Shown piece by piece: positions 36,318 to 41,279 of a DNA stretch of 64,000 nt. The translations under genes were made by a program, and so were the position numbers. The notes below the pieces were generated by a model. It saw nothing but the letters and a program-made list of their open reading frames with translations. It was not told the DNA's origin and did no database searches. The DNA comes from Chlorobiaceae bacterium (GTDB lineage Bacteria > Bacteroidota > Chlorobiia > Chlorobiales > Chlorobiaceae). Position 1 is the first letter of the stretch. Every line of letters begins with the position of its first letter. The stretch spans positions 6,372 to 70,371 of the forward strand of contig JBAWYL010000011.1 of assembly GCA_037143555.1 (NCBI GenBank). Direction: 5' to 3'.

Positions 36318-37601
36318 ATGGAAGAGGCAGAAAAAACAATGAAAAAGCAGAACTTGAGCTCTCGATCTGATGCTGCGCAGTATATGCGTGCTTTTTTGCC
36401 GTTTTTCTGGAAAAATTTTATTCACGACAGGATTTTTCTCGGAGCAGGTTCTCTGGCTTTTCAGACGCTGCTTTCAATTGTGCCGGTTCTTGCCGTCATA
36501 TTGTCAATATTGAGCGTATTTTCTGTATTCGCCCCTTTCAAGCGTTCGATTGAAGACTTTCTCGTTCAGAACTTCATGCCCGGCGCCGGAGCGGTTCTCC
36601 ATCACTACCTCACTGACTTTATTGGAAAAACATCCAGTGTCCCTCTTCTTGGCGGCGTGTTTTTGTTTATCATTGCACTCTTTCTCATATCGACTGTCGA
36701 TCATACCCTGAATGAAATATGGGAGGTCCATGCACCCCGAAAGGCGCTGCAGGGCTTTACCCTCTACTGGACCGTTCTGACGCTTGGACCTGTGCTTATC
36801 GGCAGCAGTCTGGCGGCAAGCTCCTACGTCTGGTATACGGTATTTACTGAAGGGCCGCTGCTTGAGCTCAAAACCCGGCTGCTCTCCTATCTTCCCTTCA
36901 TTAATTCTATTTTTGCCTTTTTTCTGCTCTACATGCTTGTGCCGAATCGTCGGGTAAGGTTTATGCATGCCATATCGGGCGGGTTCCTGGCAGCAGTGTT
37001 GTTCGAGCTCTCAAAAATATGGTTTGTCTTTTACGTCACTCATATTTCCACTTTTGAACATATTTACGGAGCCTTATCGGTGGTTCCGATGCTTTTTTTC
37101 TGGATTTATCTCGGGTGGGTTGTGGTACTGACAGGAGCTGAATTTGTTTTTTGTCTTGGGGCTCTTAAACCCCTGGGAGGTATTGCTGAATCATTCAATC
37201 CTTTGCGGAATGTCCCGGTGATTCTTTCGGTACTTGGTTTTATATGGAATGCCCAGAAGAGCGGTCACACGATCAATATGAAAAAGATTCTTAAGTCAGT
37301 ATACTTGATTCAGCCTTCCGACGTAAGAAAAATTGTTGATATTCTGCTTCAGAACGATTTTCTGCATGTTACGGCAAACGGTGACTTGGCGGTCAGTCGT
37401 GATCTTTATACCTTGACACTTTACGATCTCTATGCAATAATTCCCCCTGGGTTTGCAGGTGATGAAAACGGTTCGCTGATTTCAGTCGTTAATAGCGTAC
37501 ATTTAAAATCAATCAGCAATGGCGTTTCGGAATGTCTGAAAAGCAGAATGGACATGCCCGTTGTGACCTTGTTAGAGGATATTAATATAGAACAGTTATG
37601 A
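36318..37601 (+). CDS. YihY/BrkB-family membrane protein with C-terminal winged-helix-like extension
   Basis: AGSLAFQTLLSIVP, LYMLVPNRRV and IYGALSVVPMLFFWIYLGW motifs. Confidence 0.88.
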   Translation: MEEAEKTMKKQNLSSRSDAAQYMRAFLPFFWKNFIHDRIFLGAGSLAFQTLLSIVPVLAVILSILSVFSVFAPFKRSIEDFLVQNFMPGAGAVLHHYLTDFIGKTSSVPLLGGVFLFIIALFLISTVDHTLNEIWEVHAPRKALQGFTLYWTVLTLGPVLIGSSLAASSYVWYTVFTEGPLLELKTRLLSYLPFINSIFAFFLLYMLVPNRRVRFMHAISGGFLAAVLFELSKIWFVFYVTHISTFEHIYGALSVVPMLFFWIYLGWVVVLTGAEFVFCLGALKPLGGIAESFNPLRNVPVILSVLGFIWNAQKSGHTINMKKILKSVYLIQPSDVRKIVDILLQNDFLHVTANGDLAVSRDLYTLTLYDLYAIIPPGFAGDENGSLISVVNSVHLKSISNGVSECLKSRMDMPVVTLLEDINIEQL

Positions 37602-38791
37602 GTTATCAGGTTATAGCCAGGAAGTACAGGCCTGCAAAGTTTGCCGATATTACCGCACAGGAGCATGTCACCCGAACGATACAGAACTCGCTTCGCATGG
37701 GCAGGGTCGGCCATGGATATATTTTTTCGGGATTGCGTGGAGTTGGCAAAACCACAGCGGCCAGGGTTTTTGCCAAGGCATTGAACTGTCAGAAAATGAT
37801 GGAGGATACTGACTATCTCCAGAAGGTTACCGAGCCTTGCGGCGAGTGCGAGAGCTGCAGGGATTTTGAATCAGGCACCAGTTTCAATATTGCAGAGTTT
37901 GATGCTGCATCCAATAACAGTGTCGATGATATACGCATGCTGCGGGAGAATGTCCGCTACGGACCTCAGAAAGGAAAATACAGGGTCTATATTATCGACG
38001 AAGTGCACATGCTTTCCATTGCCGCATTCAATGCGTTTCTGAAAACTCTGGAGGAACCTCCGCCGCATGCAATTTTTATTTTTGCCACCACTGAGCTTCA
38101 CAAGATTCCAGCTACCATTGCTTCCCGGTGTCAGCGTTTCAACTTCAAGCGCATTCCTCTTGAGGATATCCAGTCCCAGCTACAGCTTATCTGTGATGCT
38201 GAACATATAATGGTGGACGGTGATGCCCTTCAGCTGATAGGTCGCAAAGCTCAGGGTTCGATGCGTGATGCACAGAGTATTCTTGATCAGGTTATTGCCT
38301 TTTCAGCCGAGAATGATCATGAGGGTTCTATCAGTTATCAGGGCGTTGCTGAACTGCTGAACTACATTGACGATGATCAGATGTTTGCCGTCACTGATGC
38401 TGTTTCAGAGCACAATTCTGCCAGGATGCTCGATGTTGCGCAGTTTGTGATCAGAAATGGATACGACGAACAGGATTTTCTTGAAAAACTGATCGAACAT
38501 TTGAGAAATTTTCTGGTAGTACAGAATCTCTCCTCTACCCGTCTGGTTGAGCGCCCCGATGCCGTACGTGAACGCTACCAGCGTGATGCTGCAAAATTAT
38601 CTTCACTCTCGGTCATGCAGATGGTTGATTTTCTTCTGCTGACCCAGAAAGAGCTTAAGTTTCAGTTTGAATACCAGTTTCGTTTTGAACTGGCGCTACT
38701 CAAGCTTATTGATATTGTGCATGCCGTTCCCTCTTCCGCTCAATTGCTCGATCAGCAGCCTCAAAAAAAAAAGTACCTGACAAGTTACTGA
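37598..38791 (+). CDS. dnaX: DNA polymerase III subunit gamma/tau, zero-frame (gamma-like, 397 aa) product
   Basis: ARKYRP, GLRGVGKTT, zinc module CQ..CGECESC, IIDEVHML, FLKTLEEPP and SRCQRF motifs. It ends 6 codons after an A10 run. Confidence 0.96.
   Translation: MSYQVIARKYRPAKFADITAQEHVTRTIQNSLRMGRVGHGYIFSGLRGVGKTTAARVFAKALNCQKMMEDTDYLQKVTEPCGECESCRDFESGTSFNIAEFDAASNNSVDDIRMLRENVRYGPQKGKYRVYIIDEVHMLSIAAFNAFLKTLEEPPPHAIFIFATTELHKIPATIASRCQRFNFKRIPLEDIQSQLQLICDAEHIMVDGDALQLIGRKAQGSMRDAQSILDQVIAFSAENDHEGSISYQGVAELLNYIDDDQMFAVTDAVSEHNSARMLDVAQFVIRNGYDEQDFLEKLIEHLRNFLVVQNLSSTRLVERPDAVRERYQRDAAKLSSLSVMQMVDFLLLTQKELKFQFEYQFRFELALLKLIDIVHAVPSSAQLLDQQPQKKKYLTSY
38763..38773 (+). other. Recoding site: A10 run containing the in-frame heptamer A_AAA_AAG
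   Basis: Zero-frame codons CAA AAA AAA AAG (38762-38773). The -1 frame is open from here to 39354. Confidence 0.85.
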
Positions 38792-39354
38792 AAGAGCCTC
38801 CGGTATCCGCTTCATCAGTGTCAGTGCCTTTGCCAGTCCTTAAGCGCTCAGGAACAGGAGAAATTGATCTTGGTTCATGGCAGAAAAAACTTTCAGGTTT
38901 CGCCTCAAATCCAGCAGTACAGCAAATTCGTGCAGATGTTGCATCCGAAAGTATGCCTGCCGGCAGTGCTGAGGCACTTGAAAGAGTTACTGATATTGTA
39001 TCACTGAAGGTAGAATGGCGCCAGTTTCTTGAACATGTTTCCAGAAAAACACAGAACTTCATGGCAACGCATCTTCAGTCATGCGAACTGGAAGCCTGCA
39101 GTCCGGGTGGAGTACTCGACATTGTCTGCTGCAGAAAATTTTCATATGAAGAGCTTCTCCAGGATGTAGCGGTTCTTCAGCAGGAAGTATCAGAGTTTTA
39201 TGCACTGCCTCTTAAGCTTCGTATTCGATATGATGCCGAAAAAGATGCGTGTACAAAAGAGAAGACTGTTTTTACCATTTTTCAGGAGCTTTCTGAAAAA
39301 AATGAGGTTATCAGGTTTCTTATCAGGGAATTCGGAGGCGAACTTGTATACTGA
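38773..39354 (+). CDS. dnaX: C-terminal (tau-specific) portion of DnaX in the -1 frame
   Basis: Open from the A-run: VPDKLLKEPPVSASSVSVP...EWRQFLEHV...NEVIRFLIREFGGELVY. This is a Pro/Ser linker followed by a tau-like C-terminal domain. The ORF-track GTG 38818 has no evident RBS. Confidence 0.8.
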   Translation, partial: VPDKLLKEPPVSASSVSVPLPVLKRSGTGEIDLGSWQKKLSGFASNPAVQQIRADVASESMPAGSAEALERVTDIVSLKVEWRQFLEHVSRKTQNFMATHLQSCELEACSPGGVLDIVCCRKFSYEELLQDVAVLQQEVSEFYALPLKLRIRYDAEKDACTKEKTVFTIFQELSEKNEVIRFLIREFGGELVY

Positions 39355-39458
39355 GCAGCTCAAGCGGTTTCATAAATTATTAAAAATTCTACATATTCAG
39401 TTTTTTCAAGCGGGGTTTAAATTTTTTTTTTTTTAATACCAAAGGACGATAGAAAAAT

Positions 39459-41279
39459 ATGAGTAAAGCTGCATGTAGCACGCAGGCTCTGAAAAACCGG
39501 TTTCGCTCTGATTATTGCGGGTTATTAAGCCCTGAGCTTGAGCATACCCCTGTGAGGCTTGCAGGATGGGTTCATAGAAAAAGGGATCATGGCGGGTTGA
39601 TTTTTATAGATTTGAGGGACCATACCGGGATCAGTCAGCTTGTTATACAGCCGGAACAGCATGAGCTGTTTGCTAAAGCCGAACAGCTGCATATAGAATC
39701 GGTTATCAGAATAGAGGGCATGGTTGTCCGGCGCGCTCCGGGGGCAGTCAATCCACGTCTGGCATCAGGTGCAATTGAGGTTGTTGTCAGTCAGATCACC
39801 GTCGAAAGTAACGCTCAACCGCTTCCTTTTCCCGTTGCTGATGAGGTACCGACATCGGAGGAGCTCCGTTTAAAATACCGCTTTATTGATCTGCGTCGTG
39901 AAAAGATTCATGAAAATATTATTTATCGCAGCCGTCTGACAGCTGCAGTCCGTCACTATCTTGAGTCGAAAGAATTCATTGAAATACAGACGCCGATTCT
40001 GACCTCAAGTTCTCCTGAAGGGGCAAGGGACTTTCTTGTTCCCAGCCGTCTTCATCCAGGCAGATTTTATGCGCTGCCCCAGGCACCCCAGCAGTTTAAG
40101 CAGCTCCTGATGGTATCAGGTTTTCCCCGATATTTCCAGATAGCACCCTGTTTCAGGGATGAAGATGCCCGTGCAGATCGCAGCCCGGGCGAGTTTTATC
40201 AGCTTGATATGGAAATGGCTTTTATTGAGCAGGATGATCTGTTTTCCATTCTTGAGGGCATGATTGAGCATCTTACCCGGACCATGTCTAATAAGCGGAT
40301 TCCGCAGTTTCCATTTCCGAGGATCAGCTATAAGGAGGTCATGAACCGCTTTGGCACAGATAAGCCCGACCTGAGAATTCCGCTTGAAATCAATGATGTT
40401 ACTTCGCTCTTTGTTGATTCAGGGTTCAAGGTATTTGCCAATAATACCAAAGAGGGTTGTTGTGTGAAAGCGCTGGTTCTCAAGGGTCGCGCTCATGAAT
40501 CAAGGTTGTTTTTTGACAAGGCGGAAAAACGTTCAAAGGAGCTTGGATCTGCTGGTTTGGCTTATATCCAGTTCAGAGAGGAAGGACCAAAAGGCCCTGT
40601 CGTCAAATTTCTTTCTGAAGAGGACCTTTCACATCTTAAAGAGCAGCTCGCTCTTGAAACTGGTGATGTCGTATTTTTTGGAGCTGGTAAATGGGCTTCG
40701 ACCTGCAAGATTATGGGTGGTATGCGAACCTATTTTGCTGATCTCTTTACTCTTGATAAAGACGAACTTTCGTTTTGCTGGATAGTTGATTTTCCGATGT
40801 ATGAATACAACGAAGAAGCAAAAAAGATCGACTTTTCGCACAATCCGTTTTCCATGCCGCAGGGTGAGATGGAAGCGCTCGAAACAATGCCTCCCCTCGA
40901 TATACTCGCCTATCAGTACGACATTGTCTGTAACGGAATAGAACTTTCCAGCGGCGCCATCCGTAACCACAGACCTGATATCATGTACAAGGCATTCGGG
41001 ATTGCCGGCTACTCAAAAGAAGAGGTTGATGAACGTTTTGGTCACATGATCGAAGCGTTTAAACTCGGAGCTCCGCCACACGGAGGAATTGCTCCGGGTC
41101 TTGACCGGCTTGTCATGATTTTACGGGATGAGCAGAATATTCGTGAGGTTATTGCGTTTCCTATGAATCAGCAGGCTCAGGATCTCATGATGTCCTCTCC
41201 TTCGGAAGTAACCCCTGCACAGCTTCGGGAGCTGCATCTAAGGGTTGAACTGCCGAAAAAGCCAGAAGAGAAAAAATAA
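39459..41279 (+). CDS. aspS: Aspartate--tRNA ligase
   Basis: [46 protein letters not shown] and [14 protein letters not shown] motifs. Confidence 0.97.

Follow-up and report, generated by a model that had tools for sequence, protein, structure and literature searches.

A single dnaX gene with two probable decodings at an A10 run in a Chlorobiaceae genome, with tau probably arising mainly through RNA polymerase slippage

The window analyzed here (a stretch of 64,000 nucleotides from a Chlorobiaceae bacterium; GenBank assembly GCA_037143555.1, contig JBAWYL010000011.1, positions 6,372 to 70,371 of the forward strand) carries the sole dnaX of its genome, a gene whose coding sequence is divided between two reading frames at a run of ten A residues. 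The features of this locus are as follows.

37598..38791, forward strand: dnaX zero-frame ORF of 397 aa, a gamma-like clamp-loader subunit with domains I-III and the 5-residue tail YLTSY
38763..38772, forward strand: A10 run, candidate slippage site; the next base is G and the zero-frame codons are cAA AAA AAA AAG
38767..38773, forward strand: zero-frame heptamer A_AAA_AAG, where a -1 ribosomal shift could occur instead, identical to the E. coli dnaX heptamer (PMC5009743)
38773..38994, forward strand: tau-specific linker in the -1 frame, VPDKLLKEPPVSASSVSVPLPV..., of variable length, rich in Pro, Ser and Ala, with low AF2 confidence
38778..38780, forward strand: third-frame (+1) TGA, 2 codons past the run, which would terminate A9 and A12 mRNAs (...QKKST and ...QKKKST)
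38789..38791, forward strand: gamma-ending TGA in the zero frame, 16 nt past the A10 run
38995..39354, forward strand: conserved C-terminal domain and stop in the -1 frame, about residues 75-193 of the 193-aa tail, with 11 invariant residues over 4 families

The zero frame starts with an ATG at 37598, and its product ends in ...QQPQKKKYLTSY ahead of the TGA at 38789-38791; PF13177 (DNA_pol3_delta2), PF22608 (ATPase lid), and PF12169 (gamma3) were each detected above the Pfam cut-off in this first ORF, in line with a preliminary description of the locus that had taken the unshifted product to be gamma. The -1 frame has no stop between 38713 and the TGA at 39352-39354, and fusion of the two frames gives a protein of 585 aa with the junction QPQKKK/VPDK, which is identical whether it comes from a -1 shift or from one A added to the mRNA. 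The preliminary description had given the zero-frame stop at 38789-38791 with an ORF length of 397 aa, the -1 frame open from the A10 run to 39354, a product of about 585 aa joined at QPQKKKVPDK, and an in-frame A_AAA_AAG at 38767-38773, all of which were reproduced from the sequence. Its remark that standard annotation makes two genes of such a locus also holds for the public databases, where dnaX of this kind is divided into a 395-402-aa "gamma/tau" entry and a separate short ORF.

Downstream of the run, the Pro/Ser linker and tau-like C-terminal domain proposed for the -1 frame were borne out by comparison with relatives, as 20 related species have continuous DnaX proteins of 594-632 aa whose C-terminal part can be aligned with the tail of the window gene; by this alignment, dnaX ORF2 is identified as the C-terminus of proteins that are continuous DnaX elsewhere. 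[quoted passage not shown] An AF2 model of the C-terminal domain had a pLDDT of about 90, and a Foldseek search with this model ranked DnaA domain I, DciA, and RbfA highest; the C-terminal chain of E. coli tau, 5fku_E, came at rank 5 (E 0.04, probability 0.90) and 2aya at rank 26, a weak match overall. The modeled domain has a KH-like fold of the type seen in tau domain V, with a weak resemblance to E. coli domain V. A Pfam search gave no match for the window tail and one match, with E=0.1, among the tails of 22 relatives; PF12170 had no match over the whole genome, though among 14 control genomes this family clears its cut-off in just one, and a profile search of the PDB with the tail returned a chance-level match only. 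Rfam matched no family over 37400-39600.

The genome (2.46 Mb) contains 161 A/T runs of at least 9 nucleotides, and only the dnaX run joins two long frames of one protein; the break at the A10 run is far beyond chance. A second candidate A10 junction, on contig C16, was rejected as two ordinary adjacent genes, the downstream one with its own ATG. To place the dnaX break in a wider context, 124 species of the order, representing 4 families, were surveyed, the species counts not being mutually independent. An A run is present at the equivalent position in all 124 species, and 104 of them, from 4 families, have an identical break at a run of A9-A11; in the other 20 species tau is in frame and the run is retained. 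The comparison among Chlorobiaceae proposed in the preliminary description thus found both break and run conserved, and relatives with one continuous ORF, which had been named there as evidence against a functional split, are a minority that has kept the A run in each case. On the dnaX tree, the state of the gene (split or continuous) switches at least 12 times, at least 7 of these on well-supported branches, while the run stays, and one natural continuous ORF (P0103) bears the exact predicted junction QPQKKKVPDK. Some close relatives, such as L084 and L086, are distinguished solely by whether gamma or tau is in frame. We take the split as real and selected because the break is conserved, the run is kept through the switches of state, periodicity follows the tau frame, start codons that could serve ORF2 are few, and the predicted junction occurs in P0103. 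The split dnaX is best read as one gene with two decodings at the A10 run, and both the anatomy and the conservation of the split are directly established.

Three readings that would dispense with recoding were weighed against these data. An assembly error or a pseudogene, the true gene being continuous with A11, has in its favor that homopolymers are error-prone and that the contig of one close relative has A11 with the same junction; this reading is nonetheless extremely improbable because 104 of 124 species share the break in independent assemblies that include single-contig genomes, the zero-frame stop lies at a fixed 16 nt from the run in 87 of the 104 split species, the genome has no second dnaX, and finished genomes show the same break (Antonov et al. 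2013, PMC3711429). Variation of the run at the DNA level, in which subpopulations with A10 and A11 would supply tau in some cells in the manner of phase variation, would accord with pairs of assemblies from the same species that differ by one base, namely L036 (A10) and the JGI contig L129 (A11), which share 99.9% identity over 1894 nt, L016 (A11) and L140 (A10), and L069 (A10) and L148 (A9). However, homopolymer errors or RNA-derived contigs explain such one-base differences equally well, the assembled state is A10 in 112 of the 124 species, and tau, which is essential in E. coli, would be missing from most cells, so that we consider this reading very unlikely. A metagenome scan for run length found, among the matches listed, at least nine Chlorobium-type dnaX contigs, eight with A10 and one with A9, too small a number to weigh run-length variants; no paper was found on JGI sample 3300016680, the source of the A11 contig Ga0180046_133719. 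Finally, ORF2 could be translated separately as its own protein from the GTG at 38818, which heads an ORF of 178 aa, and gene callers do annotate such ORFs (97-207 aa). Their called starts differ widely, however, and we consider that ORF2 is not independently translated because half of the split species lack a start codon before the conserved C-terminal region (no ATG, GTG, or TTG precedes the conserved W in the tau frame in 53 of 104) and just 6 of 104 have a start preceded by an SD-like motif. An independent start at GTG 38818, which the preliminary description had raised as a possible objection, found no support: this GTG lacks both conservation and an SD-like motif, and codon periodicity starts 45 nt upstream of it, at the run. 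A scan of 38700-39480 found no promoter-like site or terminator, and a free C-terminal domain would be unable to tether polymerase to the clamp loader; separate translation is hardly credible.

With regard to how the two frames are joined, we consider it probable that the A10 run allows two readings of dnaX, with tau made mainly through RNA polymerase slippage that adds one A. The templated A10 mRNA, under standard decoding, would yield the 397-aa gamma-like subunit, while slippage of RNA polymerase on the run would produce an A11 mRNA in which 38773-39354 comes into frame and the 585-aa tau is made; A9 or A12 mRNAs would run into the third-frame TGA at 38778-38780, with gamma-like products of 393-394 aa, and some tau may also come from a -1 shift of the ribosome on the in-frame A_AAA_AAG. 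That slippage occurs, that it is mainly transcriptional, and in what ratio the products are made we infer from comparative evidence, which leans toward the transcriptional route; the preliminary description had not chosen between ribosomal and transcriptional slippage. In the literature searched, no RNA or protein data were found for any Chlorobium dnaX.

Polymerase slippage is favored over a -1 ribosomal shift because the run is long, the third frame is closed, a stem-loop and an SD-like motif are absent, and a tRNA-Lys(CUU) is present. Run length among the 124 species is A10 in 112, A9 in 8, A11 in 2, and A7 in 2, and the retention of 9-11 A residues in 122 of 124 species, though a ribosomal site needs just 7, argues for the polymerase; AAA makes up only 45% of the Lys codons elsewhere in these dnaX genes. 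The third frame is shut within 3 codons of the run in 94 of 104 split species, as compared to 15% at control positions, and in 117 of 124 species neither non-tau frame stays open beyond 9 codons (closed in the window by the TGAs at 38778-38780 and 38789-38791). These closed frames include one that a -1 ribosomal shift never enters, which again points to polymerase slippage, as described for Thermus (PMC5009743, PMC1088944); part of this conservation could be at the protein level, as the third-frame TGA overlaps a conserved Pro-Asp of tau. A T at +6, a synonymous site in a tau-frame Pro codon, is retained in 73 of 80 species. Two observations temper a purely transcriptional account: SD-like 4-mers are found upstream of the run in 45 of 124 relatives vs. 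16 of 124 in a control window, which counts against pure polymerase slippage, and the same genome has about eight further A10 runs within long open frames, where efficient slippage at every A10 would come at a cost.

The main competing explanation assigns most tau synthesis to a -1 shift of the ribosome on A_AAA_AAG (38767-38773), as in E. coli but with the two frames trading roles, and seems to us rather unlikely. It predicts the same product as slippage with one added A, reversed dnaX genes were framed as ribosomal frameshifting by Atkins et al. 2016 (PMC5009743), and the heptamer without any stimulators gives about 14-16% shifting in E. coli systems and about 14% in vitro (bioRxiv 10.1101/2025.10.02.679949). 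In the window gene and in every split relative the heptamer is also in frame, and it is as strictly conserved as the run, but its conservation follows from the geometry of the site and hence cannot discriminate between the two routes. Ribosomal frameshifting would leave the three extra A residues and the closed third frame unexplained, and the stimulators expected for it were not seen: no SD-like motif (GGAG, GAGG, AGGA, or GGGG) lies within 22 nt upstream of the run in the window, a stable stem-loop 5-8 nt downstream is absent (the best 60-nt fold, at -14.3 kcal/mol with z -1.6, starts at +1, and the first 40 nt reach -4.8 kcal/mol), and over 125 species RNA structure downstream of the run showed no excess and no conservation, with a mean z-score of 0. 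The genome encodes tRNA-Lys(CUU) as well as tRNA-Lys(UUU), which speaks against the ribosomal route; Tsuchihashi and Brown reportedly found in 1992 that E. coli shifts less on AAG when tRNA-Lys(CUU) is supplied. This tRNA was also found in 4 relatives, and its use to discriminate A10 from A7 species was dropped, since it occurs in both and shows no correlation. By contrast, the two A7 relatives (L090 and L092) have the SD-like box GGGAGGGG upstream, a hairpin downstream, and no nearby third-frame stop; judged by these features, they look E. coli-like. Stimulators in A7 species lend some weight to ribosomal decoding in the group and are as expected if, with a short run, tau has to come by way of the ribosome.

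The statement in the preliminary description that this arrangement had been reported for Chlorobium dnaX is correct. Antonov et al. 2013 (NAR 41:6514, PMC3711429) described two-ORF ("reversed") dnaX genes that depend on recoding for tau, as restated by Atkins et al. 2016 (PMC5009743), so the split arrangement is already known for Chlorobium since 2013. The genes named by Antonov et al. are those of Chlorobium luteolum, C. tepidum, C. chlorochromatii, C. phaeobacteroides, Prosthecochloris, and Chloroherpeton, with runs of A10, A9, A8, and A7; the same transcriptional slippage mechanism was proposed there by aligning the sites with Thermus, and E. coli-like stimulators have been mentioned for C. 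phaeobacteroides dnaX (PMC5009743). The window gene has the same gamma-length ORF1, poly-A junction, and tau tail, and nothing essential differs, the present data extending the arrangement to another Chlorobium species: ORF1 carries domains I-III and stops just past the junction, the run falls within 7-10 A residues, the tail is in the -1 frame, and the break is conserved. Added here beyond the 2013 study are counts drawn from 124 species, closure of the third frame, the difference between A10 sites lacking stimulators and A7 sites that have them, and the repeated exchange of the in-frame product.

Among better known systems, Thermus thermophilus dnaX (Larsen et al. 2000, as relayed in PMC1088944 and PMC5009743) resembles the window gene in having at least 9 A residues and then a G where gamma and tau part, stops close to the run in the frames other than tau, and, according to these accounts, no need for RNA stimulators. 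It differs, on the same accounts, in that tau comes from the templated mRNA and gamma from slipped mRNAs; here the templated frame encodes gamma, and by putative slippage tau would come only from an mRNA with one added A (also -2 or +4). The 20 continuous relatives match the Thermus layout, with tau encoded by the templated mRNA. E. coli dnaX shares with the window gene an in-frame A_AAA_AAG at the same domain boundary and two products with common domains I-III, but its frameshift product is gamma, and it has an SD-like stimulator, a stem-loop, and a single tRNA-Lys, none of which applies to the window gene. In Shigella flexneri mxiE (Penno et al., as relayed in PMC1088944), one extra nucleotide inserted during transcription of a homopolymer likewise fuses two overlapping ORFs into a longer product; that account concerns an unrelated gene, for a transcription activator outside the essential replication machinery, whose run is of U/T.

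Through tau, the replicative polymerase is linked to both the clamp loader and the helicase. An organism without a templated tau hence depends on a decoding "error" for replication, a point already made in 2013. For annotation, split dnaX entries should become one recoded CDS, and the family survey yields sequence criteria that separate the mechanisms, namely how long the run is, whether the third frame is closed, and whether stimulators are present. We suggest, tentatively and as a possibility somewhat against the odds, that within one family the dnaX site may have switched repeatedly both in its templated product (at least 7-12 exchanges, the run being kept) and in its mechanism, between polymerase slippage at A10 and a -1 ribosomal shift at A7 with an SD-like box and hairpin. 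If this is true, the family would be a natural series for how slippage efficiency sets the tau:gamma ratio, and this ratio could respond to conditions that alter polymerase slippage.

The dnaX locus of the window has the layout given in the preliminary description, namely a zero-frame ORF1, a run of ten A's (A10), an open -1 frame and a 585-aa fusion, and is the only dnaX copy in this genome (2.46 Mb, 97% complete). Its features are:

37598-38791, + strand: dnaX ORF1, ATG 37598 to TGA 38789-38791, 397 codons
38713-39354, + strand: -1 frame, open from 38713 to its stop at 39352-39354
38763-38772, + strand: A10 run, read in the zero frame as cAA AAA AAA AAG
38767-38773, + strand: heptamer A_AAA_AAG, in the zero frame
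38778-38780, + strand: TGA closing the third (+1) frame

ORF1, whose start (ATG 37598) overlaps the stop of an upstream BrkB/YihY-family gene, encodes all three clamp-loader domains (PF13177, the PF22608 lid and PF12169, the last at residues 248-375). As computed, a -1 shift at the heptamer and one A added to the mRNA give the identical 585-aa protein, with ...QQPQKKK joined to VPDKLLKEPP... By its named relatives in the databases, the organism belongs to Chlorobium/Chlorobiaceae.

Comparison of dnaX regions across 124 species (111 members of three genera in the window's family, plus 13 that belong to three further families of its order) showed that both the A run and the frame break are conserved, an alignment proposed in the preliminary description. 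The run was found at the same position in all 124 species (A10 in 112, A9 in 8, A11 in 2, A7 in 2), and the C-terminal part lay in the -1 frame, as in the window, in 104 of them, with the zero-frame stop exactly 16 nt past the run in 87 of these 104 split species. Relatives with a single continuous ORF, which had been named as evidence against recoding, do exist (20 of 124), all of them retaining the run; the other 104 are split. Several of the split genomes are single-contig assemblies, and among the 161 A/T runs of at least 9 in the window's own genome this run is the only one joining two long frames. A second junction candidate, an A10 at position 44605 of contig C16, was rejected as two ordinary adjoining genes; this A10 encodes the C-terminal end (..FKKKI*) of a PAP2-like membrane protein, and the next gene, for an ArnT-like glycosyltransferase, has its ATG 5 nt farther on. 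Evidence from one assembly is weak because assemblies of the same species can differ by one A in the run (A10 in locus L036 vs A11 in L129; A11 in L016 vs A10 in L140; A10 in L069 vs A9 in L148); agreement among approximately 100 assemblies is not weak evidence, and we conclude from these comparisons that the break is not an artefact. As a separate observation, L129 (JGI contig Ga0180046_133719, sample 3300016680; 1894 nt) is 99.9% identical to L036, with one mismatch and one gap, and its A11 run (1251-1261, A10 in L036) yields an uninterrupted DnaX of 582 aa whose junction reads QPQKKKVPDK; this A11 would represent a slipped mRNA if the sample is a metatranscriptome.

The tail encoded in the -1 frame is predicted to be read from the run rather than from a start codon of its own. 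In a gap-free alignment of 80 species, variability immediately past the run tracks codon position in the tau frame, mean entropy in the first 16 nt being 0.94, 0.92 and 1.27 bits at positions 1, 2 and 3; farther 3' there follows a clear xCx periodicity of the kind that Pro/Ala/Ser codons usually give. Of the 104 split species, 53 lack any tau-frame ATG, GTG or TTG from the run up to W36, the tail's first invariant residue, and only 6 have a candidate start preceded by an SD-like motif; ORF2 starts assigned by gene callers scatter from 97 to 207 codons from the end. Independent translation from GTG 38818, considered previously, is not supported, as this GTG is neither conserved nor preceded by an SD-like motif, and a promoter scan from the run to the end of dnaX found no promoter-like site. 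The final ~120 residues of the tail are conserved throughout the four families; 11 residues are invariant, and the tail ends in ...EFGGELVY. Its position is the stronger argument for regarding the tail as the tau C-terminus: it forms the C-terminus of continuous DnaX proteins (594-632 aa) in 20 species, and P0103, a continuous ORF on a metagenome contig, has the junction EQQPQKKKVPDKPLK exactly as predicted for the window. Sequence profiles found no connection between the tail and the Pfam tau domain V. An AlphaFold model (pLDDT ~90 across residues 75-190) matched replication-initiation proteins of KH-like fold, namely DnaA domain I and DciA; its matches also included the C-terminal part of tau in the E. 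coli Pol III complex (chain 5fku_E; rank 5, E 0.04, prob 0.90) and 2aya (rank 26). This weakly suggests that the tail may be tau domain V-like by fold.

Transcriptional slippage is probably the main route to tau; one extra A put into the mRNA by RNA polymerase would bring the tail in frame and give the 585-aa protein. We infer slippage as such from comparative anatomy. A run of 9-11 A's is kept in 122 of 124 species, whereas a ribosomal site requires only seven bases, and AAA accounts for only 45% of Lys codons elsewhere in the dnaX genes compared. The third frame of split genes, entered by neither normal decoding nor a -1 ribosomal shift, is closed within three codons past the run in 94 of 104 split species, vs 15% at control positions; in the window, the T of the closing TGA (38778-38780) occupies a synonymous site of a Pro codon in the tau frame, but is more strongly conserved (73 of 80 species) than any other third position of the region. 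Both non-tau frames are closed within nine codons in 117 of 124 species, a feature these species and the window share with Thermus dnaX, where stops lie nearby in both non-tau frames and mRNAs with varied A counts are made (PMC5009743, PMC1088944).

Production of tau by -1 ribosomal frameshifting at the heptamer seems rather unlikely. Three points count for this route and against transcriptional slippage: the heptamer is in the zero frame everywhere, although the geometry dictates this; on its own it supports ~14-16% shifting in E. coli systems (bioRxiv 10.1101/2025.10.02.679949); and relatives show a mild enrichment of SD-like 4-mers 5' of the run (45/124 vs 16/124 in the control). On the side of transcriptional slippage, RNA structure 3' of the run was no better than in shuffled sequence (mean z 0; 125 species), the first 40 nt past the window's run having a folding energy of -4.8 kcal/mol, and no SD-like motif was found within 22 nt upstream of that run. 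According to Tsuchihashi and Brown in 1992, a cognate CUU tRNA reportedly reduces shifting on AAG. The window's genome and four relatives have both tRNA-Lys(CUU) and tRNA-Lys(UUU); about half of bacteria, including E. coli, have a single Lys tRNA (PMC5009743). Also counting against transcriptional slippage, approximately eight further A10 runs lie within long open frames in the window's genome, and the species compared are related and hence represent non-independent observations. All routes other than these two, taken jointly, are very improbable. Contig C6 of the same genome, outside the window, carries four same-strand A10 runs inside long open frames (9387, 16132, 19511 and 43029), an unusual cluster spanning at most 35 kb given that only 28 of the 161 runs of at least 9 lie inside such frames.

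Two species, L090 (genome G129) and L092 (G123), are the only ones among the 124 with a minimal A7G site. Both have GGGAGGGG 6 nt upstream of the run and, 7 nt downstream of it, a 6-bp hairpin (GUGCAG..CUGCAU); the third-frame stop is distant in both (11 and 15 codons). Upstream motif and hairpin resemble the E. coli dnaX cassette, unlike the window with its missing SD-like motif, and as judged from sequence features these sites form ribosomal frameshift cassettes of the E. coli type within an otherwise A10 family. The A7 exceptions are in keeping with transcriptional slippage as the main route in the other species, and agree with E. coli-like signals remarked on in C. phaeobacteroides by Atkins et al. 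(2016; PMC5009743).

In the 20 continuous genes, tau is in frame in three ways: by one additional A (L016); by an upstream one-base change that shifts the codon phase of the run (e.g., L046 vs L006; also L021, L025, L068, L084, L089, L098, L118 and L119); or, in 10 species of a second genus, by a 5-nt deletion directly past the run, these species resembling E. coli in that a TGA closes the -1 frame one to three codons past the run. On a FastTree phylogeny of the N-terminal 370 residues, split and continuous states exchange at least 12 times, at least seven of them on well-supported branches, these counts being rough; such an exchange of roles was foreseen by Atkins et al. (PMC5009743). Locus L105 (G065, a single contig of 2,154,946 bp) has A10 inside a continuous 620-aa dnaX, the -1 frame meeting a TGA one codon past the run, and its site sequence matches the "Chlorobium_tepidum" line in Fig. 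S3 of Antonov et al. (2013), where it is listed with a DNA-level frameshift, at odds with the continuous ORF seen here.

Downstream of dnaX, a non-coding motif at 39368-39402, GTTTCATAAATTATTAAAAATTCTACATATTCAG, lies between the dnaX stop and aspS (ATG 39459) and is conserved in three genera while its flanks are not; it has no match in Rfam or to the sigma-70 consensus, and is possibly the aspS promoter. The genome's longest homopolymer, a T13 run, lies at 39422-39434, 25 nt before the start of aspS; relatives have shorter T-rich stretches at this position.

The observation is thus confirmed and its interpretation supported; the kind of split dnaX is already known, for Chlorobium itself, as the preliminary description correctly noted. 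Antonov et al. (2013; PMC3711429) reported 17 two-ORF dnaX genes from 12 genera, nine with A10, naming Chlorobium luteolum, C. tepidum, Prosthecochloris, Flavobacterium, Cytophaga and Coraliomargarita as well as Chloroherpeton (A9), C. chlorochromatii (A8) and C. phaeobacteroides (A7); from the parallel with Thermus they proposed transcriptional realignment. In the literature searched, only that study and the 2016 review mention the layout, and neither describes an experiment on a Chlorobium gene. Our analysis adds no new phenomenon but refines the known one, with counts across the whole family, closure of the third frame, a contrast of A10 with A7 cassettes, and roles exchanged repeatedly between split and continuous genes.
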